Shown here: piece by piece, positions 32,660-47,280 of the stretch | How the letters are laid out: each line of letters opens with the position of its first letter | How positions within the stretch are numbered: position 1 is the first letter of the stretch | Assembly (NCBI GenBank): GCA_028286905.1 | Contig: JAQBQP010000002.1 | Location: 453,358 to 517,357 of the forward strand | Direction: 5' to 3' | Origin: Candidatus Doudnabacteria bacterium | Lineage (GTDB): Bacteria > Patescibacteriota > Doudnabacteria > UBA920 > VMFF01 | Length of the DNA stretch: 64,000 nt | The notes under the pieces: generated by a model | Told to the model about the DNA's origin: nothing | Databases searched by the model: none | What the model saw: only the letters and a program-made list of their open reading frames with translations | Translations under genes and position numbers: made by a program

Positions 32660-32738
32660 GCATAACAAAAAAACTTTCGATCGGCGAGGTGAACGAAAAA
32701 ATACACCGGCGATACTCTCCTTTCGGATTTCTCGCCGG
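32660..32738 (-). promoter_or_regulatory. terminator hairpin plus TTTTTTTGTTATGCT motif 6 nt before the helicase ATG
   Basis: Hairpin CCGGCGA...TCGCCGG with T-run, then the TTTTTTTGTTATGCT motif, a 6-nt spacer (CATTCC) and the ATG. Confidence 0.45.
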
Positions 32739-32759
32739 TTACAGCTTCTGGCCGAGGCT

Positions 32760-33278
32760 CTACCAGCGCTTCTGCGCCAGCGTTACCATCAGGACTGTGA
32801 ATGCGATGCCCAGCAGAATGCAGCCGGACGCGATGTTTGCGAACCGTTCGGCGCCGAGCAGAACCATCTGTCCGTGGCACTCATAGAGCATCCAGAGCAG
32901 GCCGCTGGCTGCGAAGATGTCCACGAAGAACATCAGCTTCCGCGACCGCAGCTTCGCCTTGGCGGTTTCCCAGCCCGACTGCTGCTGTTCACCCTCGACG
33001 CTTCGGATGTACGCCGCGATTCGATGGATCGAATAGTCGCCGCGCGCGATCCAGAAGACCATCGTCATTCCGAGCGCGTAGACGAACTTGTACAGCGCAA
33101 CGTTCAGGGTCATCTCAGCAGCGATGAAGCTGAGGAACATGCTGAACGCCAGCAGGAACACTCCGTTGATCATCAGCTTATCTTGCTCGATGATCTCCTT
33201 GCGGAGCTTCTTATTTTCCGCAGCATTCTGCTTCAGTGCCCGCATCTTCTCGTCAACATCCTCGAACATGGGCCTCAC
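32760..33278 (-). CDS. hypothetical membrane protein on a GC-rich insert
   Basis: A roughly 520-bp segment that is strikingly GC-rich relative to its flanks. It has its own TTGACA-17-TATTTT promoter and RBS upstream, and a hairpin with T-run downstream. Confidence 0.5.
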   Translation of the reverse strand: MRPMFEDVDEKMRALKQNAAENKKLRKEIIEQDKLMINGVFLLAFSMFLSFIAAEMTLNVALYKFVYALGMTMVFWIARGDYSIHRIAAYIRSVEGEQQQSGWETAKAKLRSRKLMFFVDIFAASGLLWMLYECHGQMVLLGAERFANIASGCILLGIAFTVLMVTLAQKRW

Positions 33279-33346
33279 TTTTATACCCTCTTGTTGAATT
33301 GTGGACTATTTTATGAACAATCACAAAATACCATATTTAATGACAT

Positions 33347-33964
33347 TTGTCAAAGGTATCCTTCTTACAATTGATAATATATAATAAAAACATGCATAAA
33401 AAAGCTACTTTTGATGAAATATTTAATATTTGGCTTGATTCCGAAGCCAATCAAATTGAGGGCAGAAATATCTTGCCCGTAGCTAAAGCTAAGGGTTTTA
33501 ACTCAGTTGCAGAGTGGCGCCTATCCACTGCTTTAAGATTGGGTATGGATACCAAAATCTGGTCCTTGGAAATAATAGAAAACCCAAACGAAACGCTGCC
33601 TAATATTATTATTGGCCCATATCAAGGATGGTCAAAGTTTTTTAATAACCAATTGCAAACTAGTTTTGCAGAAGCGCTAAAATATAAAGAGTTCTCGGAA
33701 TGGTGCAAAACTCACGATCGGATCATTCCAATATCAAATAATTTTCCATTACCCACGACGATTATTTTATTTCGCAAGCCAAATGGCGATTTGATGCATA
33801 TTGAAGGCGGCCATCGAATTTGTGCAGTAGCATATAAAAAATCAATTGGTTCACCAATTGATTTTGAAAACAAACCAAGCATTACCGCAGCAATCGCAAA
33901 TGTAACTGATTCAGAAATTGCACAGATGCTAATTTTTTTGAAAGAAGGAACTTTTAAAATCTAG
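33347..33964 (+). CDS. hypothetical protein (205 aa)
   Basis: ORF track. It has an IEGGHRICA motif of unknown meaning. Confidence 0.4.
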   Translation: MSKVSFLQLIIYNKNMHKKATFDEIFNIWLDSEANQIEGRNILPVAKAKGFNSVAEWRLSTALRLGMDTKIWSLEIIENPNETLPNIIIGPYQGWSKFFNNQLQTSFAEALKYKEFSEWCKTHDRIIPISNNFPLPTTIILFRKPNGDLMHIEGGHRICAVAYKKSIGSPIDFENKPSITAAIANVTDSEIAQMLIFLKEGTFKI

Positions 33965-33990
33965 TTTAAAAACTAATTCTTTAGCGGTGT

Positions 33991-34365
33991 TTAAAAATTA
34001 TCAAAAAAATCTTTTACTTTCGCCTTAATAGCACTTTCTACTACATCCCGTTTATCCTTAGAAATATCAATTCTTTCAAAATGTTCGTGCCCAGAAAGCG
34101 ATAAGCCAATACTACCGTTAAGGTGCTTCTGTACGTAGCCTTCAAGAACCAACTCATTTTTATCCAAACCCAATGATTGAATTATGCGATTATGGAAATC
34201 CGTTCCTAAATACACATCCCAATTTGATGTGATTATAATTCGCAAATCTCCTTTATCTAAAAAGCGTAAAATCATTTTTTTGTCTTCAGCTGAAGAAACC
34301 CTTATAGTAAAGAATTCTTTCATCGCTTCTATCTCATTTAAGCCTCTGGTTTCAAATTCTGTCAT
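33991..34365 (-). CDS. hypothetical protein (124 aa)
   Basis: ORF track. Confidence 0.35.
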   Translation of the reverse strand: MTEFETRGLNEIEAMKEFFTIRVSSAEDKKMILRFLDKGDLRIIITSNWDVYLGTDFHNRIIQSLGLDKNELVLEGYVQKHLNGSIGLSLSGHEHFERIDISKDKRDVVESAIKAKVKDFFDNF

Positions 34366-34416
34366 GATTTTATAATATCAAAAAAACATCACTCCTACGA
34401 GTGATGTTTTAGATTA

Positions 34417-34893
34417 TTAATTTTGTGTATCCGCACTTGGACCATAAATTGATGGAACCACTGCTCCCATCGCTCGCAAGTATGTAGTCAGTTGTCCGCG
34501 ATGATGGATAGCGTCGAATAAGAATCCCCAAGCCATATGATATTTTTTATCTTTCCAAGTTTCACCCCAACCAGAATCACCGTTTTCCCAATCTTCTTCA
34601 GAAATTTGCTCAAGGTCTGTTTGTAGCTGCGCCATTCCCTGATCAAACTTAACAAGCATATCCTCTTTGGTTTGCTTTTCCATTTCATGCGGGTTAAAGG
34701 CAGGTACGCCTGTAGTTATAATTCCAGAAATAGCTTTCCATTGCAAAGATAATTGTGCGGCCAAGTTTCCAGCGGCACGAGATCTTTCATGAACTTTATG
34801 AGAGTGCTTATCTTCGGACAAAGCTTCTATCGCCACTCTAAACTTTGGTGCTTCTTCTTGCAGAGTTTTTAGGAAAAATTCCTTGTTTGTCAT
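34417..34893 (-). CDS. DinB/YfiT-like (DinB_2) putative metal-dependent hydrolase
   Basis: His-rich four-helix-bundle pattern with a HHRGQ motif. Confidence 0.45.
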   Translation of the reverse strand: MTNKEFFLKTLQEEAPKFRVAIEALSEDKHSHKVHERSRAAGNLAAQLSLQWKAISGIITTGVPAFNPHEMEKQTKEDMLVKFDQGMAQLQTDLEQISEEDWENGDSGWGETWKDKKYHMAWGFLFDAIHHRGQLTTYLRAMGAVVPSIYGPSADTQN

Positions 34894-34937
34894 ATATTTT
34901 TTTATTAGTTATAAATTCATTATACCATATCCACTAT

Positions 34938-36575
34938 TTAGTGCGCTGCTGCAGGTTGCTCTAAAGTCTCTACATTTTTTTCTTTTGGAAGTTTAACAGA
35001 AATCAATAAAGCAAAAAGTATAAAGACAATGCCGTAGGTTAGAACGGCCTTATTCGCTTTAACAGTCGCCTCATGGCTGATGCTAATTATTTCATTTGTA
35101 ACATTTTGCGGTGTCCCTGCCCCAAGGTTAGCGCCTGAGCCAAATTCAATATTTGAACTTTGCTGGACGACTGCCTGGCTTATTGCCGGCTTCATTTCTG
35201 ATGATAAAACGTTACTAGAATTTACACCCGCAGCCAGGTTTGAAGATATGGTGGTAAGCAAAATAGCTCCGAGAATTGCTGAACCCAAAGTTTGCCCCAA
35301 GGTTCTTATTGTACTTGTTACTCCTGAAGCCTCGCCTGCCTGCTGGGCAGAAACAGCTGAAAGAGTTAGATTGCTAGTTTGAGCCATCATTAATCCCATG
35401 CCCATACCAAATAAAGCGAAACCGGGGGCCAAGACCCACGGATTTGCACCAACGTGCAAGCTTTGTCGCAAAACAATAAATCCTAAAACATCAAATAAAA
35501 TACCAATTTGAATTATTCTCTTTGGCGAAATATATTTGCTGACCCAAGCAGACAACGGTGCAGCAATCAAAATAACTGCGGTCATAGGAATCATAGCAAT
35601 GCCGGTGTGCACCGGATCAAGTTTTAAAACTGATTGAAAATAAACAGGCACAGAAAAACTTAAACCTGCTTGACCTAACGCTAGCACTGCAGAGACTGTA
35701 GAACCTACCACAAACGGAGAGTTTTTAAAAAGTTTTAAAGAAACCAACGGAGTTCTACCTTCACGTTCATGCGCTATTTCCCAAACTATAAAAAGTGCCA
35801 ATATTATTATTCCAAGCAGTATGAATACTGGCGTCATTGATAAGCTTCCGAAGCTTAGAGCTGTGGATCCAAGAGTAAATATTTCTTTTGCTTTCCACCA
35901 GCCATAGGTTGAAGCTTCTATCGCACCAAATACGACGAAAAACATTCCTGAAGCAGATAATAGTACTCCCATAAAATCTAAGTCCGACTTCTCATCTGTA
36001 TCCCGAGATTCTTTTATAAACCATGCTCCTATCACCAGCATTGCAGCGATAAAAATATTAATTCGAAAAGCCCATCTCCAGCTATAAGCAGTTGCCAACC
36101 ATCCGCCAATAACTGGTCCAAGCGCTGCCGCCGCCGCGACTATTCCGCCCCAGACACCAAACGCAATTTGACGATCCCTGCCTTCATAACTGGTTCTTAG
36201 CAATGATGCCGTAGCGGGTAACATAAGCGCTGCTCCAATTCCTTCAATTATAGCTTCGCCAATAATCATTGTCCCAACGGTATGGCTAATTGAGGTAATA
36301 AAGGAACCGACCGCAAAAATAACCGCGCCATAAGCAAACATTTTTTTACGTCCAAATAAATCGCCAAGACGGCCGCCGGTAATGGTAAAAGCGGCAAGCA
36401 TCAAAGAGTAGGCTGTTATAACCCATTGAATTTTTTGAATGGTGGTATGCAAATCGCCGATTATAGTCCTTAGCGTAACATTAAGGATGGTTGTATCTAG
36501 AATAATAATAGTAAGGGCAAGGCTCATTACTAATAATGGAATCCATTTCTTGAACCCGGTGTTTTGAGTTGTCAT
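34938..36575 (-). CDS. MFS transporter, DHA2 (EmrB/QacA-like, 14-TM) drug:H+ antiporter family
   Basis: 545 aa with about 14 TM helices and an MFS motif A (GRLGDLFGRKK). Confidence 0.7.
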   Translation of the reverse strand: MTTQNTGFKKWIPLLVMSLALTIIILDTTILNVTLRTIIGDLHTTIQKIQWVITAYSLMLAAFTITGGRLGDLFGRKKMFAYGAVIFAVGSFITSISHTVGTMIIGEAIIEGIGAALMLPATASLLRTSYEGRDRQIAFGVWGGIVAAAAALGPVIGGWLATAYSWRWAFRINIFIAAMLVIGAWFIKESRDTDEKSDLDFMGVLLSASGMFFVVFGAIEASTYGWWKAKEIFTLGSTALSFGSLSMTPVFILLGIIILALFIVWEIAHEREGRTPLVSLKLFKNSPFVVGSTVSAVLALGQAGLSFSVPVYFQSVLKLDPVHTGIAMIPMTAVILIAAPLSAWVSKYISPKRIIQIGILFDVLGFIVLRQSLHVGANPWVLAPGFALFGMGMGLMMAQTSNLTLSAVSAQQAGEASGVTSTIRTLGQTLGSAILGAILLTTISSNLAAGVNSSNVLSSEMKPAISQAVVQQSSNIEFGSGANLGAGTPQNVTNEIISISHEATVKANKAVLTYGIVFILFALLISVKLPKEKNVETLEQPAAAH

Positions 36576-36577
36576 AG

Positions 36578-37009
36578 TTATACGGGAAAATTATTATTTA
36601 ATTCTTTTAGCAACTCTAAAAGTTGTTTTTGTTTAGCTACACTCAATTTAGAAAAAGCTTTGTTCAAACCAGACTCACTGTCCCCCATTGGAAATTTGCT
36701 GAGCAACTGAGTTCCTTTTTTGGTAATTACCAGATTAAGATTCCTACGATCTTTTTTATCCGGCTTTCGCAAAAGATACTTTTCGTCTTCCAAAACATCA
36801 ACTAAGGGAACCAACGAAGGGGGCTGCATACTAAAAGTCTTAGCCATTTCTTTGATTGTAATTGGTTTGGACTTAATTAAAACCAAAATGCCGTATTGCA
36901 ATGGCGTTACGCTTATCTTGGCTGCAGAAAAGCGCTTCTCCGCATCGGCTTTAGCGGTCTTAACCAATTGATACAACAATTGTTTTAGAGGATTTGATTT
37001 GAATATCAT
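36578..37009 (-). CDS. MarR-family transcriptional regulator
   Basis: Winged HTH of the MarR class, 143 aa. Its stop abuts the MFS gene start, so an efflux regulator-transporter pair is likely. Confidence 0.7.
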   Translation of the reverse strand: MIFKSNPLKQLLYQLVKTAKADAEKRFSAAKISVTPLQYGILVLIKSKPITIKEMAKTFSMQPPSLVPLVDVLEDEKYLLRKPDKKDRRNLNLVITKKGTQLLSKFPMGDSESGLNKAFSKLSVAKQKQLLELLKELNNNFPV

Positions 37010-37189
37010 TCAATAATAATAAGGTACCTAATCATTACTGTCAAGTTACTTGGCAAGCATGCAGTTTTCATAACAAAAACTAAAAGCGTAGGCCAAGATG
37101 AAAGAACCTCCGTCAAAACAAAAGAGCCTCGACAAATGAATGTCGGGCTCTTTTCGTTAGCGCATCATGCGCAATTAGAAGTTCCTCCT

Positions 37190-37540
37190 TTACCTTAGAA
37201 CCGGCGCCGGCAACCCGCGGCCCCGAGCGTACCGCCGCGCAAAGAACATACACAGCGGATTAATCGTCCGAACACTGAGGCTCACCCCAAGTACTAAACC
37301 AACCACGGTGACCACCAGCTCCCGCTGCCACGGGATGGGCATTCTCACCAACACCGCTACCGCCATCGAGGTGAACAACGCGACCAGCCCGATGAACGAT
37401 ATGACCATACCCATGATGATTCGGAAGAAGAACGCTTTCTCAACGTACGCTACTCCCGCCATCGATGCCCCAAAGAGAGCCACGAACGCAAAAAAAACAG
37501 GCAACAGGACCAACTCCCACTGGATTAAAAAGCTTTGCAT
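37190..37540 (-). CDS. small membrane protein on a GC-rich insert
   Basis: GC-rich segment. RBS GGAGG before MQSFLIQW.... Three TM helices. A hairpin with T-run follows downstream at about 37140-37170. Confidence 0.45.
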   Translation of the reverse strand: MQSFLIQWELVLLPVFFAFVALFGASMAGVAYVEKAFFFRIIMGMVISFIGLVALFTSMAVAVLVRMPIPWQRELVVTVVGLVLGVSLSVRTINPLCMFFARRYARGRGLPAPVLR

Positions 37541-37655
37541 TGAAACCTCCTGTGGAGGACTTGTTACGGGGATAAATAAAAATAGCACTAATAAGTGCTA
37601 TTTGCAAGATCGGAGTTTCGCAGACCTATAAGATAAACTGGAATAACAAAGATCG

Positions 37656-38510
37656 CTAAATCGTATATTCCAATATTTCTTTGCCTTCCAGCAAAGAACT
37701 CAAATCAAACCTTCTACTTTCCTTCAATTCTTTTGGTTCCCCTGAAAGATCACCCGGCTCAACAAACACAGCAAGTTTTCTGTTACGAGAAAACTCAGGT
37801 CCATTTTTAAAATCTTGCTGCCCTTCAGGGTCAACGCCTTCTAATATTCTTTGAACTAAATTAGGATTAGAAAATAATAAGCCTTTTTCTCGATCTGTTC
37901 CGATTAATGCAAGAATAAGGTTCTTAGGCAAAGCAAGTTCGTAAGTCATATTATTCCTTCTCTTCACTGAATCCCGAAAAGACGCCCGCCTAATTATAAT
38001 CATATTAAAAAATGAATTTCCCATTCCAGGATTTATATCTTCATATTTAACGGGGACTACGGCCTTTTCATAACTAATATCATCGACCATCTCCCTCTTT
38101 TCTTTCCCAAACAATCCCTTAGCAGGTATAATCTTTTCTCGCCTATTAGAGACGCTTCTTTGTACGCTCTGGCGAGCAGCGCCAATATATAAAAGTTCTG
38201 CTTCTTTTTCGTCTACTCCTGGAATTATAGGAGGTTCGTCCATGCGAACATTATTTACAACACGTAATTTTGAGAACGATAATACTTTATACACATCATT
38301 AATTAACCTAGTGCATGAATACGGATACTTTCCGGTTTTAATCCCTTCTACTATATCATTAACAATTCCTTTTTCGTTAAATTCTGGAGTAGTTGAAAGT
38401 AACTCTTGAGCTTGCTGATAAGTATGATCTGGAACATCTCCAGCATTAATATTTTTCAGCATTTTTTGAGACTCTTCCCAAGCTTCTTCGGAGCTATATC
38501 TTTCGGGCAT
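37656..38510 (-). CDS. hypothetical protein (284 aa)
   Basis: ORF track. Low GC. Confidence 0.4.
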   Translation of the reverse strand: MPERYSSEEAWEESQKMLKNINAGDVPDHTYQQAQELLSTTPEFNEKGIVNDIVEGIKTGKYPYSCTRLINDVYKVLSFSKLRVVNNVRMDEPPIIPGVDEKEAELLYIGAARQSVQRSVSNRREKIIPAKGLFGKEKREMVDDISYEKAVVPVKYEDINPGMGNSFFNMIIIRRASFRDSVKRRNNMTYELALPKNLILALIGTDREKGLLFSNPNLVQRILEGVDPEGQQDFKNGPEFSRNRKLAVFVEPGDLSGEPKELKESRRFDLSSLLEGKEILEYTI

Positions 38511-38599
38511 AGTATATTTTTAATTAACATTAGCATATCAAAAAATCATCACAATTACGAATAATGAATTCTTGGCGCCGCTATAAGGACTATTAAAAA

Positions 38600-38650
38600 A
38601 AACAGAGGTGATAAAACTAAAAGCGCGGGACCAAGATGTTTGTCCGCGCT
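38600..38650 (-). terminator. rho-independent terminator after the 38671-39099 gene
   Basis: CAGCGCGGACAAACATCTTGGTCCCGCGCTTTT. Confidence 0.5.
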
Positions 38651-38670
38651 GTTTATTTTGTGGCTTCCTC

Positions 38671-39099
38671 CTACATAATGATTCCGCAGTACCCCGTGCT
38701 CGTACCCTCCAGCCACTCCAATCGATAAAGCGGATGGCTCAAAATGAGCTTACCGCTCTCCCTCTCGAAACGGAAAGGGCAGAAACTCAGCTGTTCAACT
38801 GGCCCCCATGTCCCATCCGGATTGAGGCGCTGCACCGGGAAAGTTACATCCTTCTTCGCTATGGAATCCTGGGCCGTCTTCACATCCGGCGACTGGATCA
38901 ACCGATACCAACGATCCTTCGAGCCCCTTGCAACCACTTCTTCGAAAAGATTCATGGGCCAGGGCTTCGAACTATAAAAAGCTCTGCCGCCGCTTGCTTC
39001 ATCAACGACGATGGGATCGACAAGCGGAGCTTCGCAGTTTGCTACCGCGCCCTTCTTCCGATTCCGATACCAGTTGCTAAAGAACAGTAGGACCCGCAT
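38671..39099 (-). CDS. hypothetical protein on a GC-rich insert
   Basis: GC-rich. RBS AAGGGGG before the ATG. A clean rho-independent terminator follows at about 38600-38650. Confidence 0.45.
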   Translation of the reverse strand: MRVLLFFSNWYRNRKKGAVANCEAPLVDPIVVDEASGGRAFYSSKPWPMNLFEEVVARGSKDRWYRLIQSPDVKTAQDSIAKKDVTFPVQRLNPDGTWGPVEQLSFCPFRFERESGKLILSHPLYRLEWLEGTSTGYCGIIM

Positions 39100-39162
39100 A
39101 TTACCCCCTTAGTTGAACCCAAGTGAGAGATAAATAAAATTACCATGGGTAATGGGAATTGT

Positions 39163-39196
39163 CAAAAGCCCACCTCAATTACAAAGTGGGCTTTTG
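39163..39196. repeat. degenerate copy 0 (hairpin only)
   Basis: CAAAAGCCCACCTCAATTACAAAGTGGGCTTTTG has the same CTCAATTAC loop as copies 1 and 2. Confidence 0.4.
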
Positions 39197-39288
39197 ACAC
39201 GAGTTGTACAGAAAAACTATCCACAAAACACCATATAAAATGATGCGCTCTGGGTAGACGCTCTCGAAGTTTCGAGAGCGCACCGAAT

Positions 39289-39615
39289 TCACGAGATCTT
39301 GAAATATTGATGCCATAACGCCTCTCCTTCCTGATCCAGTGGCAGTCGCAGAATCAGCGGTGGATGATTCCCTGGCAGGATGGTTTCGTCCATGACCAGG
39401 TGTCCGTTTTCCAGATAGAAGCGCCGGGCAACGATCGTACTCTGAACGACCAGAACTCTGGTATGGCGATCCACTATCGCCTGCTTGCTTTCGCCGTGAT
39501 ACACCACGGAGTAGTGCTCTTTCTGGGCGGCGTCCCAAGCCAATGCCCCCAAAACAAATGCGTGCAAGGTCAGAACCAAGAACGCGGCACAGAGTTCTTT
39601 GCAAATCATTTTCAT
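39289..39615 (-). CDS. small secreted protein on a GC-rich insert
   Basis: Signal peptide MKMICKELCAAFLVLTLHAFVLGALA. GC-rich. A strong hairpin follows downstream at about 39245-39280. Confidence 0.4.
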   Translation of the reverse strand: MKMICKELCAAFLVLTLHAFVLGALAWDAAQKEHYSVVYHGESKQAIVDRHTRVLVVQSTIVARRFYLENGHLVMDETILPGNHPPLILRLPLDQEGEALWHQYFKIS

Positions 39616-39720
39616 CTTCAGCTCCAGATCAACGTGATTTAGAATCCTCCTCGAAACCGACCCAATTGCCGGATTAAATAAAATACCACGATTAGTGGTA
39701 TTCGTCAAAGAATTGGAAAA

Positions 39721-40452
39721 TTACCGCTGCCCTTTAAACAAAGCAACGTGAAATCCAAAATCTTTCCCATACTCACCAATAAATATTGGCACGTAAATTA
39801 AATCTAAAGAAAGTCCTAGCTTCTTTTTATCAGATTTATTAAACGCTTTAAAATTAGTCAGTTTTTGGATATCTACATTAGCCCGAGCCAAATCTTTTTT
39901 ATAGAACGTTTTCCCGGTAAATTCAAAAAGATCTGCTAATCCATTTTGAGTCGGAAATGGCAATTCGAGCGCGCTTAACTTTTCCATTATATATTTTACC
40001 GTATATATTTTTGAATTTCTTTCTAATTCGATAGAAAAAAAGTTATCAGGATTAAAACTTGATACGGAACCCTTTCTTGGCATAATAAGAACTTTATTTA
40101 GTTTAAAATATTTAGCTAAATTTATATGTGCTTTATTAGGTTTGGTCACAATAATTCCGCAGTCGTTACTCTTACTTTTGGTATTATGGAACTCTATAAT
40201 AAAACCTGATTTCTTAAATGTCTTTTTTAGAGATTTCGCCAATTTATGCTCGTAGGTTTTGCCTGGCAAATCAAAATTCCTGTTAAGATCTGCTTCGATG
40301 AATCTTAAATTCTTCTCTACAGCTTTCGGATTTGCGATTAAAGCTTCTAAATTTTTATATTCTTTCCTTTGAAGGCTTTTCACTACAGACACGCCGGTCT
40401 TTTCATTACCATGAGTTCCGCCAAGTATCAAGATTTTATTTTCTATTTTCAT
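39721..40452 (-). CDS. succinylglutamate desuccinylase/aspartoacylase-family zinc hydrolase
   Basis: The GGTHGNE motif is the GxHGNE zinc-binding hallmark of the AstE/AspA family. Start set to MKIENKIL.... Confidence 0.6.
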   Translation of the reverse strand: MKIENKILILGGTHGNEKTGVSVVKSLQRKEYKNLEALIANPKAVEKNLRFIEADLNRNFDLPGKTYEHKLAKSLKKTFKKSGFIIEFHNTKSKSNDCGIIVTKPNKAHINLAKYFKLNKVLIMPRKGSVSSFNPDNFFSIELERNSKIYTVKYIMEKLSALELPFPTQNGLADLFEFTGKTFYKKDLARANVDIQKLTNFKAFNKSDKKKLGLSLDLIYVPIFIGEYGKDFGFHVALFKGQR

Positions 40453-40459
40453 AGCAAAA

Positions 40460-40530
40460 GCATAACAAAAAACCACCTCAATTACGAGGTGGGCTTTTGG
40501 CAGGGATTGAGGGAGCAAGTTAGAATAATA
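40460..40530 (-). repeat. cassette-boundary repeat, copy 1 (full)
   Basis: GCATAACAAAAAA, then hairpin CCACCTCAATTACGAGGTGG, then GCTTTTGGCAGGGATTGAGGGAGCAAGTTAGAAT. Confidence 0.6.
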
Positions 40531-40624
40531 TTAACAAATAAGTGCCGTTGACTTTTACCACAAAACATCATAAAATATCATATTCCTGGCGAACGCCTTG
40601 AACACACTCCAACGGAGGCAACAA

Positions 40625-40981
40625 ATGAAGATGCATATGCCGCGTCTCACCACGATTCTTTCCACCCTTCTCCTGACGGGTTGCGCGGGTTTCTCACGTT
40701 CCTGCTCTTCGTGGAATGCGAGAAACTTCGCAAGCGACTGGGTCGTCGTGCAGTACAAGTTCGACGGATCACCCATCAACTGCTGGACTCTCAAGGGCAC
40801 CAGCGTTTCGAACGAGGGAGGGTCTGACGGCATCTACTGGAAGGACGGGACAAGCGGCCATCTGGTTCACATCTCGGGATGGTACAACCGAGTCCAGGTC
40901 GCCAACAACCAGTTCGCGCAAGCCGCGACGCTGATGGGGGTAGACGCAAGCAAGTGCGCAAACGGCAAATACCAACCGTAA
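40625..40981 (+). CDS. lipoprotein on a GC-rich insert
   Basis: Lipobox LLLTGC. RBS GGAGG. Its own TTGACT-17-TAAAAT promoter sits at about 40548-40576. A terminator follows at about 40990-41040. Confidence 0.5.
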   Translation: MKMHMPRLTTILSTLLLTGCAGFSRSCSSWNARNFASDWVVVQYKFDGSPINCWTLKGTSVSNEGGSDGIYWKDGTSGHLVHISGWYNRVQVANNQFAQAATLMGVDASKCANGKYQP

Positions 40982-41091
40982 CGTTTGTGCCGAGCACCAA
41001 AACCACCAGGTTCTTATTGAGCCTGGTGGTGTTTTATTTAAAATAAGCGATGTGGGTTGCTAGAAGAAGTTAGAACTTCAATTGAATATTC

Positions 41092-41544
41092 CTAGTTTTT
41101 GAGTTCCTCGGCCAATCCAATAAGAATTCCTTCGGGCCCACGAATATAACAAAGCCTATAAGAATTCTCATATTGAACCACATCGCCTACGAGTTGGGCG
41201 CCTAACTTTTTAAGCCGTTCAACCAGCTCATCAATGTCACTTACAGTGAACATTGCTCTCAAATAACCAAGAGCATTCACTGGAGCATTTCGATGGTCGG
41301 CAATGACAGGAGGAGTAAAAAAACGCGAAAGCTCAATTCGACTGTGGTTGTCGGGTGTGACCATCATCGCTACCTCAACGTTCTGGTCACCTAATCCAGT
41401 AACACGTCCCGCCCACTCTCCTTCTACAATAGCGCGACCTTCAAGCTTTAAACCAAGCTCGGTAAAAAAAGAAATAACTTCATCGAGGGATTCCACAACG
41501 ATGCCGATGTTGTCCATGCGTAGCACTTTACTTTTTTCTGTCAT
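41092..41544 (-). CDS. VOC-family (glyoxalase/bleomycin-resistance fold) protein
   Basis: Paired beta-alpha-beta-beta-beta modules, 150 aa. Confidence 0.6.
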   Translation of the reverse strand: MTEKSKVLRMDNIGIVVESLDEVISFFTELGLKLEGRAIVEGEWAGRVTGLGDQNVEVAMMVTPDNHSRIELSRFFTPPVIADHRNAPVNALGYLRAMFTVSDIDELVERLKKLGAQLVGDVVQYENSYRLCYIRGPEGILIGLAEELKN

Positions 41545-41582
41545 TTTATTCCGTTATTATTTTAACTGTTGATACCTAAAAA

Positions 41583-41655
41583 GCATAACAAAAAACCAGC
41601 TCCATTACGAGGTGGCTTTGGCACGGGCTATGGGAGCAAGTTGGAACTAGAATTG
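41583..41655 (-). repeat. cassette-boundary repeat, copy 2 (full)
   Basis: GCATAACAAAAAA, then hairpin CCAGCTCCATTACGAGGTGG, then CTTTGGCACGGGCTATGGGAGCAAGTTGGAAC. Confidence 0.6.
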
Positions 41656-41689
41656 CTCAAAAAAACCACCAAATTTAGACAGTTATTTT

Positions 41690-42310
41690 TTACAACAGGA
41701 TTAGAATAAGAGCTATGATCGCCATTCCGAAATCCTCAATAAGCGTTACGTAGGTAAGTGGGACTTTGAGAAACGTTCCTAAACAAGCGCACATAAAAGG
41801 TTCTCGCCTTGCAAACTTAATCGCGACTCCTAATCCGCTAAAAACCATTACAACAAATTCCGCCCACAACAGCCACATCGAATGCAATCCTGATAACATA
41901 GCAAAACCAAAACCTAATTCGATGAACGGATATATGTACCCATATCCGAACCACTTTTTAGCCAAAAGATCATAGGTAGAATAACCTTCAGCAAAACCTT
42001 TTACGTCCATCAATTTAAATCCACCGAAGACTAAAAAGAATCCAGTCATAAAATTCAGAAGAAAACCTGTCAAAGAAATTCGTCCGTTCCAAGCAGTAAT
42101 TACCGAAGCAATAAATATCAGAAGAATGATCACTATCAAAGGTTGATAACTTTTCCAAGTGATCACACCTAAACCTTGTTCAGAGGTTGTGTGCGCCATT
42201 GGTTTGATCTGATCCTTTAAGACAAGCGTCATTCCACATTTTGGACAGCGGCCTAGTTGATCTGAAACAATATCAAGGTGCATCGGGCAAGTATAAATTT
42301 GATTATCCAT
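41690..42310 (-). CDS. membrane protein with N-terminal heavy-metal-binding zinc-ribbon (CPxH...CPxCGM) and DoxX/MauE-like TM domain
   Basis: CPMHLDIVSDQLGRCPKCGMTL matches the HMBD/YHS-like metal-binding ribbon. Four or five TM helices follow. Confidence 0.5.
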   Translation of the reverse strand: MDNQIYTCPMHLDIVSDQLGRCPKCGMTLVLKDQIKPMAHTTSEQGLGVITWKSYQPLIVIILLIFIASVITAWNGRISLTGFLLNFMTGFFLVFGGFKLMDVKGFAEGYSTYDLLAKKWFGYGYIYPFIELGFGFAMLSGLHSMWLLWAEFVVMVFSGLGVAIKFARREPFMCACLGTFLKVPLTYVTLIEDFGMAIIALILILL

Positions 42311-42390
42311 AATTTTGACCTTTCTTAATAAAGTTTCATTATTTCAACAAAATTTTCTTATCATAAGACGATTATACCATACACTAAAAT

Positions 42391-42422
42391 TACGGGCTGT
42401 GGGAGCAAGTTAGAACTGAAAT
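42391..42422 (-). repeat. cassette-boundary repeat, copy 3 (truncated; no hairpin)
   Basis: TACGGGCTGTGGGAGCAAGTTAGAACTGAAAT. Confidence 0.5.
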
Positions 42423-42440
42423 AAGACAAGAATGCTCGTT

Positions 42441-43631
42441 TTAATGCGGATGGTTATGCAGTGGTTTATCGTTTGGGTCGTGCTTCATCCGAGTCAAAAA
42501 AGTCACAGCCAACACAGTCGATATCGGAACTGCAAGTATTAAAGAGATACTTCCTACCAAAGTCCTAACTATTTCTTCCATCACGAACTCGCTATTCAAA
42601 GTAACCCACAATGGTTGAGCCGTATTTAAAACAAATAGCAAAAAAAGCGGTAACGAAGCGCCGGCATATGCAAGCACCAATGTATTCACCAAAGAAGCTA
42701 TGTGCTCTTTCCCGACAGATATACCACCTTGGTATAATCTCTTCTTTTCGATTTGCGGATGCACTTTACGTATTTCATCAACAGAAGCCACTTGGCTTGT
42801 GGTAACATCATCCAGTACTCCCAGAGTTCCAATAATTATTCCACTTAAAAGTAACCCCTGAAGATTTAAAACACTTCCATAGCCTGCTTGGAGATAATAC
42901 GCTTCTTCCGAGCCAAGCCCAAATAACTTTGCTAAGTGCACAAAAAGTGCAGCCATCCCAATTGAAATTACCAATGTTATCAAAGTACTTAAAACAGCAA
43001 TGCTAATACGCTTATTAAAACCATGTGCTAAATAAATAGAACCAACAGATATTACGATGGAGCCGATTAGGGTTACCAATAACGGATTACTGCCATGCAA
43101 GATGGATGGAACTATGAATTTTAATAAAATAAAGATTGTGAAAACTAAACCTAGAATTGATGTGAAGCCACGTAATCTGCCAAAGAAAATAACTACTGCT
43201 AAAAATATTACGATCATTATGCCCAATGCTGGCAAACGATATCTGTCGACAACCGCATATTCGGTTTGTCCTTGATTCATATTTTTAGTTACAACAACTA
43301 TTTCGCCTTTAACAAGCCATTGTTTATACGTATCTGGATTTTCATTAATTCGATAATTAATGACTTTATCTTTTTCTGGACCGTCTAAAATTTGTAGTTT
43401 AGAATCTTGCTCTCGGGCAGGGATCGTCTGACTGCTGTGGGTTATTTCGCTGTTCCATCGCTCATCTTTAGTTATTTCAAGAACTTTGGCCTTTTGAAAA
43501 CTTTGTGGCACTACTGCTCCGGGCTCTACCACCTCTAAGGGAATATTGCCAACACTTTGATTGTCTTGTGCTTTGGACAATAAAGGCACTGAGGATAAAA
43601 GTATACAGATAATTAAAAACAGTTTTTTCAT
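42441..43631 (-). CDS. YibE/F-like polytopic membrane protein
   Basis: Signal peptide, then an extracellular N-domain, then seven to eight TM helices. Confidence 0.45.
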   Translation of the reverse strand: MKKLFLIICILLSSVPLLSKAQDNQSVGNIPLEVVEPGAVVPQSFQKAKVLEITKDERWNSEITHSSQTIPAREQDSKLQILDGPEKDKVINYRINENPDTYKQWLVKGEIVVVTKNMNQGQTEYAVVDRYRLPALGIMIVIFLAVVIFFGRLRGFTSILGLVFTIFILLKFIVPSILHGSNPLLVTLIGSIVISVGSIYLAHGFNKRISIAVLSTLITLVISIGMAALFVHLAKLFGLGSEEAYYLQAGYGSVLNLQGLLLSGIIIGTLGVLDDVTTSQVASVDEIRKVHPQIEKKRLYQGGISVGKEHIASLVNTLVLAYAGASLPLFLLFVLNTAQPLWVTLNSEFVMEEIVRTLVGSISLILAVPISTVLAVTFLTRMKHDPNDKPLHNHPH

Positions 43632-43710
43632 ATATTAGGATTATAGCAATAAAATACTGTAAGCCCCCAAGATATAACACTCAGGGGCTCACAAGTGATC
43701 AGTCTGACGA

Positions 43711-44103
43711 TCAGCAATCTGCCGAAGCCAAAGCGCCGTTCTGAAGCTGAATCTGCTCCAACGGCGACATCGCCAGTAGCTCGCGGGTTGGCGCTGCCAC
43801 AGAACCGCAGCAGTTGTAGAGACCGAAAGCGACGCCGAACTCAGCTTCGCAGATACTGCGAGCGATATCCGTTCCAAGCAGACGGGTGATCTGCTTACCC
43901 AACGCTGTGTTCGGGTCCTGAGGATCCAGGATCTTCGCAGCAGACGCCTTCGTCCTTGCTGCGAGCTCGCCCAGATAAGCGACGCCGAGCGGCAGGTCAC
44001 GCTGAAACGCTTCGAAGAGTGCGCTACGCATCTGACCCTCACTTGCGGTATCCAAATCAACACCGCGCTCGTCCAGCACAGACACGATCGACTGATAAGA
44101 CAT
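43711..44103 (-). CDS. hypothetical protein on a GC-rich insert
   Basis: GC-rich. RBS GGAGGA. It lies 64 nt downstream of the CooC-like gene on the same strand. Confidence 0.45.
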   Translation of the reverse strand: MSYQSIVSVLDERGVDLDTASEGQMRSALFEAFQRDLPLGVAYLGELAARTKASAAKILDPQDPNTALGKQITRLLGTDIARSICEAEFGVAFGLYNCCGSVAAPTRELLAMSPLEQIQLQNGALASADC

Positions 44104-44167
44104 ACATCCTCCGATGATATTCTGAGTACCAGGGCCAAACAGAATGTTTGGAACTGGTTACAAAATA

Positions 44168-45103
44168 TCAATCTCTCAAAACAAAATCTGGGTCGACTTG
44201 TTTTCGCAAATCCTTACCAATAGAAACATTTCCCCAACTTTCCGAATTCTTTATATGAAACTCTACTGTCTGTCTGTAAAACTTCGTCCAATCTTTTTTT
44301 GACTCTCCTACTATTTGGATTAATTTTTTCAGCGCCTGGATATTTTGCTCCTCCAGAAAATTAATCGATATAACCTCTCCTCTTTCTGAATTTTTAACGA
44401 AATCAGATTGGCCAAAATAAACCAACAAGTCTTCACCTAGTTTGTTTTGCAAAAATTGTAAGTCTGAATTATCAGAAATTTTATTTCCAATTGCGACAAC
44501 CTTTACATCGTAATCTTTCGCAAACTTTTTATACTGTTCAAATACTGATACTGATTTTAAGGTAGGCTCAACGACAACAAAAGTAATATCGAATTTTGTA
44601 AACATACCGGAAGCAAAGGTGTCCGCACCCGCGGTCATATCCACGACAACATATTCATCTTCTCTGTCCAACATATGGTTTAACAATAATTCCACTGCGC
44701 CCACTTTGGAGTGATAACATTTAACTCCCAAGTCCTCTTCGCTAAACTCACCGACAGCCATAAATCTTAAGCTACCAGCTGAAATAGAAAACTTTTCAAA
44801 TAGTGGGTTCGTTTCTTTTAACCTTAATAAATTAGATCCTGCGCCAGGTGGGGAAGTTTTTATCATTTCTGAGGCTGATTCTATTCGGGGATTAGAACCT
44901 CTTAAGTACTCCTTTATCTCTGGAAGATACGTACCCAAAGACAAGACTTCAATTAATGGCAACCCTAAAGATCCTTTCATGTGCTGATTAATGTCGGCCT
45001 CAATTGCAAGGACAGGACAATTATTCTGTTGTAAGTATCGGCAGAAAAGTGTGCTGGTAGTGGTTTTCCCACTACCGCCTTTCCCCACAAAAGCTATTTT
45101 CAT
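44168..45103 (-). CDS. CooC/MinD-family P-loop ATPase (metallochaperone-like)
   Basis: Deviant Walker A KIAFVGKGGSGKTT. VVDMTAGADTFASG resembles the CooC switch region. Start set to MKIAFVG.... Confidence 0.55.
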   Translation of the reverse strand: MKIAFVGKGGSGKTTTSTLFCRYLQQNNCPVLAIEADINQHMKGSLGLPLIEVLSLGTYLPEIKEYLRGSNPRIESASEMIKTSPPGAGSNLLRLKETNPLFEKFSISAGSLRFMAVGEFSEEDLGVKCYHSKVGAVELLLNHMLDREDEYVVVDMTAGADTFASGMFTKFDITFVVVEPTLKSVSVFEQYKKFAKDYDVKVVAIGNKISDNSDLQFLQNKLGEDLLVYFGQSDFVKNSERGEVISINFLEEQNIQALKKLIQIVGESKKDWTKFYRQTVEFHIKNSESWGNVSIGKDLRKQVDPDFVLRD

Positions 45104-45166
45104 AAATGCAAATGATTTGCATTTACTATATACGAGGTCAGGAACAAATGCAAGTGACTTGCATTT
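45104..45166. promoter_or_regulatory. two 21-bp perfect palindromes (AAATGCAAATGATTTGCATTT and AAATGCAAGTGACTTGCATTT) in the divergent promoter
   Basis: Read directly in the 84-bp intergenic region between the CooC-like and Fur-family genes. Positions are within about 2 nt. Confidence 0.5.
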
Positions 45167-45187
45167 AGCTAAACTTTGTGCCATACT

Positions 45188-45595
45188 ATGATTATGGAAA
45201 ACAAAGAGCTGGTAAAATCTTACGGCTTAAAAGCAACCCCCACTCGCCTTTCAGTATTAGCGGCGCTACAGAAATATTCAAAACCTGTGAGTGTATTTGA
45301 TATATTAAAAAACTTGAACAAAAATACTGATCAAACCACAGTATACCGAATACTAAATGTATTCGTTGAGAAAGGTATGATAAAAAAAATTGACCTAAAA
45401 AAAGATTTTTCATTTTTTGAAATCAATGAAGGAAAACACCATCACCATTTGGTGTGTCAAAGTTGTTCCAAAATAAAAGAGATTGAATCTTGCGATATCT
45501 CTGCCATAGAGAAACAAGTGTTAAAAAAAAGTGGTTTCAAAAGTATTGATGAGCATGCTTTAGAGTTTTACGGACTTTGCGAAAACTGCGCATAA
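45188..45595 (+). CDS. Fur-family metalloregulator
   Basis: wHTH plus a metal-site region HHHHLVCQSC...C. The track ORF starts at a TTG; MIMENKEL is the likelier start. Confidence 0.7.
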   Translation: MIMENKELVKSYGLKATPTRLSVLAALQKYSKPVSVFDILKNLNKNTDQTTVYRILNVFVEKGMIKKIDLKKDFSFFEINEGKHHHHLVCQSCSKIKEIESCDISAIEKQVLKKSGFKSIDEHALEFYGLCENCA

Positions 45596-45615
45596 AATTT
45601 TTATAATAGACTATC

Positions 45616-45681
45616 AAAAAATCTCCACCCTATTCGGGTGGAGATTTTTTGGCACGGGCTGTGGGAGGTTAGAACTGAAAT
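45616..45681 (-). repeat. cassette-boundary repeat, copy 4
   Basis: Hairpin AAAAAATCTCCACCCTATTCGGGTGGAGATTTTTT, then GGCACGGGCTGTGGGAGGTTAGAACTGAAAT. Confidence 0.55.
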
Positions 45682-45726
45682 GACAAAACAAAACGGAAAG
45701 GTGCCTTTTGACAGCTGTAATTAAAT

Positions 45727-46155
45727 ATGTCATTGTGTGACATTGGCATTCACCCTCTTACCTTTATTTCCATGCCTAGCAGAGAAGAACTAGCGGCACA
45801 GGTGATATGGAACAGCGGTGGTTCCGGTCTCGGTATTTGCCGAGTCGCTAACGCCCTGATACGGGCGATGGACCGGCCGGGACCTAACAATCCCGACTAC
45901 CCTTCCATCGTAGCTGTGTCCGATCCACCAGAGAAGTACACGGACGAGGAACTGACGCTGATCGTAGAATTCGCTCAACGTGCAACGGCCAAACACGACG
46001 AGATGTTTCGCTTCCGTCGTGGCGCAAACCTCATACTGTTCGACAAGGAGGAGTGGAACGGAAGAACTGTGTGGATGCGAAAGCGTCTAACATGGGAGTA
46101 CGGTCCGATGTTCTCACCGACGTTAGTGGAAGCAATTGCGTCCATGGATCGGTAA
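45727..46155 (+). CDS. hypothetical protein on a GC-rich insert
   Basis: GC-rich, 142 aa. Confidence 0.45.
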   Translation: MSLCDIGIHPLTFISMPSREELAAQVIWNSGGSGLGICRVANALIRAMDRPGPNNPDYPSIVAVSDPPEKYTDEELTLIVEFAQRATAKHDEMFRFRRGANLILFDKEEWNGRTVWMRKRLTWEYGPMFSPTLVEAIASMDR

Positions 46156-46270
46156 AACCACAAATCACAGGAGGCTGTAGTTCACGTCATTCTTGGCGTG
46201 AGGTCCCGGGGAACAATAGCATGTTCCCCTTTCCTCTAAGCTCATCAATACTGGTGATCTTAGAGAAAAT

Positions 46271-46330
46271 AACCCCCCTCGAAAGGGTGTTTTTTGATAC
46301 GGGCTATGGGAGCAAGTTGGAACCGAAATA
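46271..46330 (-). repeat. cassette-boundary repeat, copy 5
   Basis: Plus-strand read: hairpin, then GATACGGGCTATGGGAGCAAGTTGGAACCGAAAT. It sits between convergent genes. Confidence 0.55.
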
Positions 46331-46331
46331 A

Positions 46332-47015
46332 CTAAATACCCTGTCGCTTTACTGCTTTAAGTATAAAAAAGCCTGGGTATTTTTTTCCATCAATTTGTTC
46401 CGCTGATGGGTCCCATTGTTCGTCAAATAATTGAACATCGAAATTTTTAAAAAGAAAGTCGTTTAAGTACTCGTTCATGGTATGGGAAGGTTCCTTTACT
46501 AGAATAGTATTGTTCAAAATATTGGAATCAACGATTTGTTGCTCAAAATAATCTGCTGTATTATCTTTCTTTTCAAAGTATTGTCTAAATGGATGCGTTA
46601 CCAAATACATCATTACTCCGCCAGGTTTCAACACTCTGTGTACTTCTTTAAAAACTGGTTTCAGGTCAGAAGAAGTCATAATTGCATATTTGGAAAGTAC
46701 AACATCAAAAAAGTTTTCCTCAAAAGGGAGACTTTCAAAAAGACCTGTTCTAATGTCAGCGTCAGGCATTCTGGATTGGGCTAAAGCTACCATTTCTTTG
46801 GATGCATCAATTCCGTATACCGCAGCCCCCAATTCTTTATAGTAAAGTAAATCTAGACCATCGCCACAAGCCACATCCAGTAATTTCATTCCAGGCTTAA
46901 CAAAATCTAAATAACTATAAAACAACTTCCTGTTTAAATTATTACTGTTTTCACCGGTGTCATGAACCTCGGAAAACTTCTTAGCAAAATTATTATATTG
47001 TGTAGATAATTCCAT
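46332..47015 (-). CDS. class I SAM-dependent methyltransferase
   Basis: Motif I LLDVACGDGLD. Start set to MELSTQYNN..., 6 nt after the GTTATGCT motif. Confidence 0.7.
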   Translation of the reverse strand: MELSTQYNNFAKKFSEVHDTGENSNNLNRKLFYSYLDFVKPGMKLLDVACGDGLDLLYYKELGAAVYGIDASKEMVALAQSRMPDADIRTGLFESLPFEENFFDVVLSKYAIMTSSDLKPVFKEVHRVLKPGGVMMYLVTHPFRQYFEKKDNTADYFEQQIVDSNILNNTILVKEPSHTMNEYLNDFLFKNFDVQLFDEQWDPSAEQIDGKKYPGFFILKAVKRQGI

Positions 47016-47022
47016 AACCCTA

Positions 47023-47077
47023 GCATAACAAAAAATCCCCACTACGACGAGTGAGGAGTTTTTGGCACGGGGCTTGC
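47023..47077 (-). repeat. cassette-boundary repeat, copy A (nearest tRNA-Trp)
   Basis: Minus-sense read: GCAAGCCCCGTGCCAAAA, then a hairpin, then TTTTTTGTTATGCT. The segment GCCCCGTGCCAAAAA is identical to the tRNA-Trp 3' end plus flank. Confidence 0.6.
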
Positions 47078-47206
47078 AGCTCCTTACAGTCGCTGCATTC
47101 CCTCTTCGTTTTGCTAACGCAAAACAAATCAAAGAAGGTCAGGAATCGAGTCGTATTCCATAGCTACCAAATCAAAAATACTCCATCCTGATGGATGGAG
47201 TATTTT

Positions 47207-47280
47207 TGGCACGGGGCGTAGGAATCGAACCTACGTAAGCGGTTTTGGAGACCGCCGTAATACCACTATACGAGCCCCGC
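47207..47280 (-). tRNA. tRNA-Trp (anticodon CCA), CCA end encoded
   Basis: Hand-folded cloverleaf. Acceptor GCGGGGC/GCCCCGT. Anticodon stem GCGGT/ACCGC with loop CTCCAAA. T-arm GTAGG-TTCGATT-CCTAC. A terminator hairpin follows the 3' end. Confidence 0.8.

Follow-up and report, generated by a model that had tools for sequence, protein, structure and literature searches.

The stretch of DNA analysed here (the window) is 64 kb of chromosomal DNA from a metagenome-assembled genome (MAG) of Candidatus Doudnabacteria, a member of the Patescibacteria or candidate phyla radiation (CPR), the assignment being based on exact protein look-ups. It is found on a 540-kb MAG contig (proteins MDB4940319-MDB4940343; locus tags JWO40_744 onward) and on a 56-kb Logan contig from SRR13312974. 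The window possesses genes for ribosomal proteins S2, L25, L31, L10 and L7/L12, as well as for EF-Ts, RF-1, CysRS, FtsW, transporters and FUR. Set among these, in a backbone of low guanine-plus-cytosine (GC) content, are eleven short GC-rich segments, which contain ten small open reading frames (ORFs), here called g1 to g10, and an ATP-grasp gene. Their neighbours are cellular genes (FUR, YibE_F, MFS, MarR and tRNAs) and ten of the eleven lie inside a 20-kb zone with tRNA genes at both of its borders.

The gene g1 (14075..14422, + strand) codes for 115 aa in a segment of 52.9% GC with flanks of 34-36%, its GC at codon positions one, two and three being 0.56, 0.38 and 0.65 (the third-position value is referred to below as GC3). 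No relative of g1 was found in Pfam, NCBIfam, PHROG or viral scans. The multi-transmembrane (multi-TM) protein of 169 aa encoded by g2 (32760..33269, - strand; MDB4940319) has a gene with 57% GC and a GC3 of 0.82, in a segment (32760-33278) of 57.4% GC. Also multi-TM is the 116-aa product of g3 (37190..37540, - strand; 55.6% GC, GC3 0.66), which has a strong GGAGG Shine-Dalgarno (SD) sequence and a terminator at 37136-37109. These are followed by g4 (38671..39099, - strand; MDB4940326, 142 aa, 53.8% GC, GC3 0.64), with an SD of AAGGGGG and its own terminator, and g5 (39289..39615, - strand; 52.3% GC, GC3 0.59), the secreted product of which has a signal-like N-terminus and is 108 aa from its methionine (annotated as 139 aa, MDB4940327). 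The proteins of both g2 and g4 were singletons in cluster look-ups.

An unannotated lipoprotein of 118 aa with the lipobox LLTGC is encoded by g6 (40625..40981, + strand; 56.9% GC, GC3 0.73), with GGAGG as SD. The same SD precedes g7 (43711..44103, - strand; MDB4940332, 58.3% GC, GC3 0.64), coding for a Cys-containing protein of 130 aa and having a terminator at 43694-43657. The product of g8 (45727..46155, + strand; MDB4940335, 53.1% GC, GC3 0.58) is listed as 142 aa, the likely start at 45772 giving 127 aa. At the far border of the zone, tRNA-Thr(GGT) and tRNA-Tyr (52398..52587, - strand) lie directly upstream of g10 and g9, with g10 starting ~90 bp downstream of tRNA-Thr(GGT). The former gene (51877..52308, - strand; MDB4940343, 51.2% GC, GC3 0.58) codes for a secreted protein of 143 aa with an Ig-like domain (N_BRCA1_IG, Pfam PF16158, E=4e-9), while g9 (51527..51811, - strand; 94 aa, 61.4% GC, GC3 0.65) has the SD GAGGGGGG.

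The ATP-grasp gene (48195..49205, - strand; 336 aa, 51.2% GC, GC3 0.60) has an AGGAG SD and a terminator at 48170-48143. It matches RimK/ATP-grasp in Pfam and, in NCBIfam, positions 209-454 of cyanophycin synthetase, which is the ATP-grasp half. It is divergent from an AT-rich, Mur-ligase-like gene (49371-50645, + strand) equivalent to the remaining half of a CphA-type enzyme. The composition of this split pair is discordant, one partner alone looking imported.

A GC profile in 300-nt windows delimits the islands sharply, the GC content directly beside them being mostly 33-39%. Together they span 4,881 bp (7.6% of the window) with a pooled GC content of 54.4%, compared with 38.2% for the remainder. 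The observation in the initial annotation that these eleven segments stand out from a low-GC backbone is correct, each having 51.2-61.4% GC; its estimate of 55-60% by eye was slightly too high for several of them. At the gene level the distribution of GC3 is bimodal, with backbone and island values not overlapping: the backbone ORFs (n=69) range from 0.24 to 0.46 (mean 0.34, standard deviation 0.045, maximum 0.46), whereas the eleven GC-rich ORFs range from 0.58 to 0.82, which is 5-11 standard deviations above the backbone (Mann-Whitney p=6e-8). In their listed frames the latter have a coding-type pattern, with GC at positions one and two of ~0.55 and ~0.35-0.48 respectively and GC3 as given.

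The two groups also differ in their expression signals. An SD-like motif is present in nine of the eleven GC-rich ORFs (strong in six, absent from g1 and g8) compared with 9 of 54 backbone genes (Fisher p=6e-5), in agreement with the earlier statement that the former usually have an SD and their neighbours do not. Many backbone genes have instead a TGnTAnAAT-type -10 box just 6-10 nt ahead of the ATG and because of this short distance are probably leaderless, which suggests from sequence that leaderless mRNAs are widespread in the backbone. Genes lacking an SD with a near -10 box include those at 2413-3984, 27810-29111, 42441-43631, 30973-32652 and 46332-47015 (all - strand). There is also a recurrent intergenic module, composed of a terminator hairpin, a T-run and GTTATGCT, which doubles as terminator and promoter; degenerate copies of it are found on both sides of g4 (~38517-38600 and ~39141-39220).

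All three sigma-70 promoters named in the initial annotation are present, namely TTGACT-17-TAAAAT (40548-40576), TTGACA-17-TATTTT (33353-33325, - strand) and TTGACC-17-TATTCT (52361-52333, - strand). The second lies upstream of g2, in a region 82% identical to that upstream of g8. Such promoter regions upstream of the units are AT-rich, and the GC-rich stretch corresponds approximately to ORF plus terminator. Each gene was also thought to have a terminator of its own; GC-rich hairpins do follow g1 to g4, g6 to g9 and the ATP-grasp gene, while none was found for g10, which is probably co-transcribed with g9. The description of the products as mostly secreted proteins, lipoproteins or membrane proteins is true for about half, these being g2 and g3 (multi-TM), g5 and g10 (signal peptides) and g6 (lipobox), with g1, g4, g7, g8 and g9 appearing to be cytosolic.

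The eleven GC-rich ORFs are genuine protein-coding genes. A strain ~96% identical is present in metagenome 3300064033 of the Joint Genome Institute (JGI), of which contig L060 is colinear with the window over tRNA-Tyr, tRNA-Thr, g10 and g9, with all 45 of its differences inside or between the latter two genes. The third codon position holds 12 of the 20 differences in g9 (13 synonymous and 7 non-synonymous codon changes) and 13 of the 19 in g10. Taken together, the two genes have ~2 synonymous codon changes per non-synonymous one, a pattern which is gone in shifted frames. Families of matching length are conserved for g6, g7 and g8, and the AlphaFold models of g7 and g8 are confident (predicted local distance difference test, pLDDT, of 94 and 89 respectively). 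As an Rfam search of the window returned just four tRNAs as RNA genes, the islands are not known structured RNAs. The possibility of structured RNAs such as those of AT-rich thermophiles was considered and is excluded for the eleven segments by this result together with codon-position GC.

An uncultured phage of 485 kb and nine IMG/VR contigs possess relatives of g6, which are lipoproteins with 44-65% identity. In the phage contigs inspected, these genes belong to closely spaced runs and are not packaged one by one. The GC3 of these homologues is 0.27 in phages of 34% GC and 0.59-0.65 in phages of 50-52% GC. For g8, 24 homologues were identified, located in CPR-like genomes, a Saccharibacteria MAG, a phage-like contig and four IMG/VR viral contigs; the GC3 of the homologue is 0.38 in a phage of 37% GC and 0.79 in a phage of 56% GC.

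The family of g7 is larger (n=62), and at all seven of the loci fetched the gene adjoins and is divergent from a FUR gene, these loci often also holding a ParA/CbiA-like gene and YibE_F. It is not a free-standing insert; it sits in a conserved slot of a FUR-linked operon across the CPR. The closest relatives (63-65% identity) occur in CPR genomes of 53-54% GC, of which the adjacent FUR and YibE_F genes are only 38-44% identical. In genomes of 53-56% GC the homologues have a GC3 of 0.61-0.73, while in L084, a locus of 39.6% GC in which the order FUR, ParA-like, g7 is kept, the homologue has 37% GC and a GC3 of 0.27. At the low-GC CPR locus L008 the homologue is also GC-rich (57% vs ~40%). The position of g7 in a conserved operon slot suggests that a foreign copy has replaced the resident one in place. 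The structure model of g7 had no match in the PDB, and its sequence weakly matches SCO5389, an actinobacterial family (NF040488 / PF20704, E=2e-5; named 'NucS shadow ORF' in Pfam). The family is probably, judging from sequence and gene order, that of a FUR-regulated metal-related protein which is distant kin of the actinobacterial one. Its members (window 43711-45595; L008, L079, L080, L082, L083 and L084) have an invariant C-terminal ...ADC and also an NCC motif.

The homologues of g6, g7 and g8 therefore take the GC content of their carrier, so GC-richness is not intrinsic to these genes and the copies in the window are foreign. For all three, the copy here deviates from the composition of its host and the homologues match that of theirs. 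For the remaining genes little was found. The relatives of g10 among 1.84 billion representatives are remote, having Ig-like repeats and at most 41% identity, and a relative above 65% identity was found for none of the GC-rich genes. None of the ten small GC-rich ORFs had a match in PHROG, no relatives of g1, g2, g4 or the g7 family came up in viral scans, and tblastn of the ten small ORFs against 72,556 plasmids gave no match. A scan of GTDB genomes with the YibE_F neighbour as query identified 58 loci, all with at most 54% identity and none a close relative. Ten proteins, from the backbone and from the GC-rich genes, were all singletons when looked up by exact cluster, which added no further strain contigs.

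It is worth considering whether the mosaic could arise without horizontal gene transfer (HGT) or from quite different donors. An artefact, either of chimeric assembly, of contaminant fragments or of GC-rich structured RNAs mistaken for genes, is suggested by the chimerism which is possible in MAGs and by the failure of annotators to call g3 and g6. It is nevertheless extremely unlikely: eleven exact insertions of 0.3-1 kb flush with AT-rich promoters are implausible as mis-joins, the MAG and Logan contigs of the sample agree across the junctions, the independent JGI metagenome repeats both the tRNA-g10-g9 order and the flanks of g8, and coding is shown by codon-position GC, synonymous bias and protein homologues. 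Hardly more credible is the notion that these are native genes kept GC-rich by selection or biased gene conversion. The conserved slot of g7 and the GC-rich homologue of L008 would suit it, but the homologues of g6, g7 and g8 in low-GC carriers are AT-rich (GC3 0.27-0.38), which largely refutes it (L084, L086 and L090), while the mode of translation initiation differs from that of the backbone and g7 is far closer to its relatives than its operon neighbours are to theirs (63-65% vs 38-44%). The initial annotation proposed high-GC lineages such as Actinobacteria and Proteobacteria as donors, to be sought by a homology search of each GC-rich ORF. Such a search found relatives for g6, g7 and g8, but in Patescibacteria, CPR-like contigs or phage contigs (44-65% identity), the plasmids giving 0 matches in 72,556. 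Direct transfer from a high-GC bacterium outside the CPR, such as an actinobacterium or proteobacterium serving as host to the episymbiont, appears unlikely. Donors of this kind typically have GC-rich genes led by an SD, and g7 has its weak SCO5389 match; the regions upstream of the ORFs are, however, AT-rich. For g1 to g5, g9 and g10, to which no relatives could be traced, such a donor is conceivable. What does hold of the earlier proposal is horizontal acquisition from GC-richer sources, which is the best explanation given that homologue GC tracks the carrier for the three genes that can be followed.

Single-gene transfers in a survey of Patescibacteria were mostly between members of this group, with HGT accounting for at most 13% of genome length (PMC12455944). 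The occurrence of the relatives of g6, g7 and g8 in Patescibacteria-type or viral contigs fits the transfer from one patescibacterium to another surveyed there. Neither tRNA nor integrons are mentioned in that work. A mosaic of this kind may be widespread among low-GC Patescibacteria. ORFs with a GC3 of 0.54-0.73 in a background of 37-44% GC were seen at other low-GC, CPR-like loci, namely L038 (4116-5163 and 17653-20578) and L008 (3996-5946), and in L038 two small high-GC3 ORFs lie between tRNA-Arg and tRNA-His.

Part of the GC-rich zone also possesses a repeated site. This is a motif of ~32-45 nt, TTTTGGCACGGGCTRTGGGAGCAAGTTRGAAC, usually situated just 3' of a bidirectional terminator hairpin. 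A profile search identified six copies, which all have plus-strand orientation and fall within 40.5-46.3 kb (E-values 1e-11 to 2e-7 with nhmmer): site d (40496..40538, E=7e-8) between an AstE-like gene and g6, site e (41048..41088, E=2e-7) between g6 and the 3' end of a glyoxalase gene, site f (41617..41659, E=1e-11) between the glyoxalase and HMBD/MauE genes, site g (42391..42428, E=1e-10) between HMBD/MauE and YibE_F, site h (45648..45687, E=3e-10) between FUR and g8, and site i (46293..46335, E=3e-11) between g8 and the 3' end of a methyltransferase gene. The glyoxalase, HMBD/MauE, YibE_F and methyltransferase genes, all native and on the minus strand, have copies within their 3' untranslated regions. 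Two GC-rich genes are enclosed, g6 by sites d and e (unit 40539-41047, with the promoter at 40548-40576 and a terminator at 41002-41030) and g8 by sites h and i (unit 45688-46292), both with one shared facing that is opposite to that of their neighbours. No clear copy of the motif lies beside any of the other nine GC-rich genes, g4 and g5 having the degenerate module only.

The left halves of the copies borne by the units read GATRYGGGYT and those of the chromosomal copies read TGGCACGGGCT. The latter are similar to the tRNA-Trp 3' end, TGGCACGGGGC. This tRNA gene (47207..47280, - strand) has its 3' end directed into the array, which starts 130 bp 3' of it, and site j (47049..47079, + strand) is a partial copy (TTTTTGGCACGGGGC) of that end with a terminator. 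The match between motif and tRNA-Trp 3' end is 9 nt exact or 14 of 17 nt, with ~20 of 27 positions of the acceptor and T-arm region aligned if one 5-nt gap is allowed. In a shuffle test this likeness gave p values of ~0.007-0.02 for copies h and f and was not significant for copies d, e, g and i. The genes g10 and g9 also lie directly 3' of a tRNA gene, tRNA-Thr(GGT), with no repeat of the 3' end of that tRNA flanking them. Upon folding of both DNA strands at four sites, the 32-nt motif remained unpaired and only the neighbouring terminator hairpin formed, the z-scores being -0.3 to +0.7 where no strong terminator was included.

In the other 1.18 Mb of fetched loci no copy of the motif was found at E<1e-4, the best match being in L064 (E=4e-4). 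This is a single intergenic partial match (CTACGGGCTATGGGACGATGTTAGAACC, 9944-9974) followed by a hairpin, on a contig of 33% GC with no other likeness to the window. A viral scan for the motif was empty, and viral contigs had no exact match to its core pattern. A metagenome scan returned 10 single matches, apparently due to chance, nine of which were in contigs of 52-66% GC and none of which was like the window. Two further identities for the motif were rejected, these being a sigma-54 promoter, as the spacing and -12 element of its TGGCAC-N-TTGC do not fit, and an Xer/dif-type module, as it has no palindromic arms.

A second strain differs from the window at g8. The g8 unit is also found on contig L061, at 97% identity and with its boundaries exactly at the motif, the left homology breakpoint lying at 45650. 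On one side of the unit, g8 directly adjoins the 3' end of the glyoxalase gene, with a junction in which the left half resembles site i and the right half site e. The g8 unit thus occupies different motif copies in the two strains. On its other side lies gene X (MEDVSKVRGEQVTLDML..., 1-203), which is GC-rich, SD-led and without a counterpart in the window, making it a strain-specific member of the same GC-rich class. The g8 ORF differs between the strains at 2 of 384 nt (99.5% identical) as opposed to 5% in the adjoining glyoxalase segment, and this value, against ~95% for the backbone, suggests that g8 has moved more recently than the strains diverged.

Four accounts of this site need to be weighed. 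The resemblance to integron cassettes noted in the initial annotation would make the motif an attC site at which IntI captures promoterless cassettes, as in an integron or in a cluster of attC sites lacking integron-integrases (CALIN). It is favoured by the size of the single-gene units (0.5-0.7 kb), by a site that recurs in just one orientation, by cassette-typical functions (glyoxalase, methyltransferase and small ORFans), by a position that varies between strains and by the closeness of GTTRGAAC in the motif to the attC core GTTRRRY. Pfam scans of the ~75 ORFs of the window, however, detected no tyrosine recombinase, integrase or transposase, the motif is not self-complementary and forms no R''-L''/L'-R' hairpin (only neighbouring terminator hairpins), the GC-rich units have promoters of their own, with promoter-like sites at g6 and g8, and face opposite to their neighbours, and the crossover in the hybrid site is mid-motif instead of at G|TT. 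As there is no integrase in the window, no attC fold and there are own promoters, this is not an integron, an identity that we consider very improbable. What survives of the cassette idea is that g6 and g8 are bounded by the ~40-bp site and that g8 is at another copy in the second strain. The copies could instead be att sites that originated from the tRNA-Trp 3' end, at which an integrase encoded elsewhere would integrate small, integrase-less satellite units in tandem, as in islands of the tycheposon type; this is conceivable though doubtful. The array is 130 bp downstream of tRNA-Trp with all sites in the orientation of the tRNA, sites j and k share TTTTTGGCACGGGGC, the alignment extends over ~20 of 27 positions (14 of 17 nt for copy h, p=0.007), g10-g9 lie directly 3' of tRNA-Thr and a hybrid junction is present; on the other hand, the window has no integrase, the tRNA likeness is not significant for four of the six copies, no repeat of the tRNA-Thr 3' end lies beside g10-g9, and in size the units fall well short of any known integrative element.

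Of similar, minor probability is the absence of any dedicated system, in which case the motif, terminator and -10 box would be a duplicated native intergenic module, and homologous or homology-facilitated illegitimate recombination after uptake would account for the insertions as well as for the strain difference. Reliance on DNA uptake is assumed for CPR bacteria, and the window contains pilin-like and RadC genes. The adjoining 'TTTTTTGTTATGCT' element also occurs at ordinary gene starts (PIF1 and methyltransferase), the crossover is within shared sequence, and nine of the eleven GC-rich genes are without the motif. Against this, g6 and g8 have the same orientation to the site and distinct half-sites of their own (GATRYGGGYT vs TGGCACGGGCT), which is the prediction for an attP x attB reaction, and 40 bp with mismatches is short for RecA-dependent exchange. 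It might also be speculated from the half-sites that the ~40-bp site is the landing pad of an undescribed, integron-independent cassette system in Patescibacteria, whereby cassettes with a promoter and their own half-site (GATRYGGGYT...GTTAGAAC), some of them phage-derived, would be shuffled by a recombinase encoded elsewhere; this we regard as rather improbable.

Overall, the eleven GC-rich genes are probably the result of moron-like single-gene HGT from GC-richer sources, partly from a pool of phage and CPR genes, with a site-related step included. The genes would arrive singly, or be retained, as units of sigma-70-type promoter, SD, ORF and GC-rich intrinsic terminator. Such a unit would be expressible wherever it landed, and its composition would not yet be ameliorated to that of the host. 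The source, as far as it can be traced, would be a gene pool shared by Patescibacteria and phages, with g6 a phage-type lipoprotein. In the case of g7, a foreign copy appears to have replaced the resident one in the conserved slot of the FUR-linked metal operon. The units g6 and g8 would have entered pre-existing copies of the ~40-bp site TTTTGGCACGGGCTRTGGGAGCAAGTTRGAAC by recombination at the motif, a step with less support than the others. Recombination at the site, either homologous or by a recombinase encoded elsewhere, would then move units between copies and give rise to the strain differences.

A number of points weigh against this interpretation. With no donor above 65% identity, neither the direction nor the timing of transfer is directly evident. 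For g1 to g5 and g9 the evidence of origin consists of composition and signals, and g10 has remote relatives only. The conserved operon slot of g7, together with the GC-richness of its L008 homologue, would call for two independent replacements or for some other cause. Clear motif copies bound g6 and g8 and not the other nine genes, no recombinase was found in the 64-kb window, and the tRNA likeness is short and significant for two of six copies. The evidence for mobility comes from one contig of 1,074 bp (L061) and one other strain.

Genes of atypical GC content acquired through HGT are textbook biology and have already been reported for this phylum; of more interest are the contrast between SD-led and leaderless genes and the site, a possibly new one for cassette landing. 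Taken together, an SD-led GC-rich gene and a leaderless backbone provide two easily read signals by which a recent import into a CPR genome can be recognised. A CPR bacterium would appear to gain genes one at a time, with the imports keeping the composition and SD-led signals of their source, and for this reason gene callers trained on the host would miss g3 and g6. The former, which lies between MDB4940324 and MDB4940325, is not called by NCBI nor in the Logan contig (L001), and g6 is likewise absent from both sets of calls despite its phage lipoprotein homologues. Two of the three traceable imports belong to phage-carried families, one being a lipoprotein, which points to domesticated phage surface functions. 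If the speculated cassette system is real, this streamlined episymbiont would have surface and accessory genes that it could exchange rapidly, and if the repeated site is a true recombination target it would represent a new route of cassette exchange outside integrons.

Some other features of the window should be mentioned. The list of islands in the initial annotation was borne out for all eleven entries; it lacked a further, non-coding island at 17690-18260 (- strand), which has 50-55% GC and lies between rplL and a sigma-70 gene with terminators at both ends. This region has stops in all six frames, no frame with coding-type codon-position GC and an RNA fold z-score of -2.85, and no Rfam family was matched even at E<=1. 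It is a candidate for a structured RNA of ~500 nt, going by its sequence. In many bacteria the order tRNA-Thr, rpmG, tRNA-Trp is followed by secE-nusG-rplK-rplA. In the window, tRNA-Thr, rpmG and tRNA-Trp (47207-47599 on) are not followed by these genes, and rplJ-rplL are located 28 kb away (18340-19273). The stretch between contains accessory-type genes, such as transporters, MarR, DinB, a NERD nuclease and a PIF1 helicase. The 56-kb Logan contig ends at 47582, inside tRNA-Thr (47524-47599) at the border of the tRNA and variable zone, and this end may reflect strain heterogeneity in the assembly graph.

Among known systems, the phage moron (Hendrix/Juhala) is a single ORF that lies between other genes together with a sigma-70 promoter and an intrinsic terminator of its own. 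Its composition differs from that of the genes around it, and its product is often a lipoprotein or membrane protein. The units described here likewise consist of promoter, ORF and terminator with atypical composition, and the families of g6 and g8 occur in phages. They differ in their location in a bacterial chromosome among cellular neighbours with no prophage around them, the ~75 ORFs of the window including no phage structural genes. The HGT surveyed in Patescibacteria concerns the same phylum, and the foreign share of the window (7.6%) compares with the at most 13% of genome length reported there (PMC12455944).

Integron cassettes and CALIN share with this locus small single-gene units, a repeated site in one orientation, a varying order and many ORFans. 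Here, in contrast, there is no IntI in the window, the site is linear, promoters are carried by the units, and the site bounds no more than two GC-rich units along with a few AT-rich genes. The tycheposons of Prochlorococcus (Hackl et al. 2023) are reported to be tRNA-linked integrative islands with satellite cargo. The likeness to them lies in the streamlined low-GC genome, the variable zone 3' of tRNA genes and the repeats resembling a partial tRNA 3' end. In contrast, the window has no integrase or replication module, its tRNA likeness is short, and its units are single genes of 0.5-0.7 kb.

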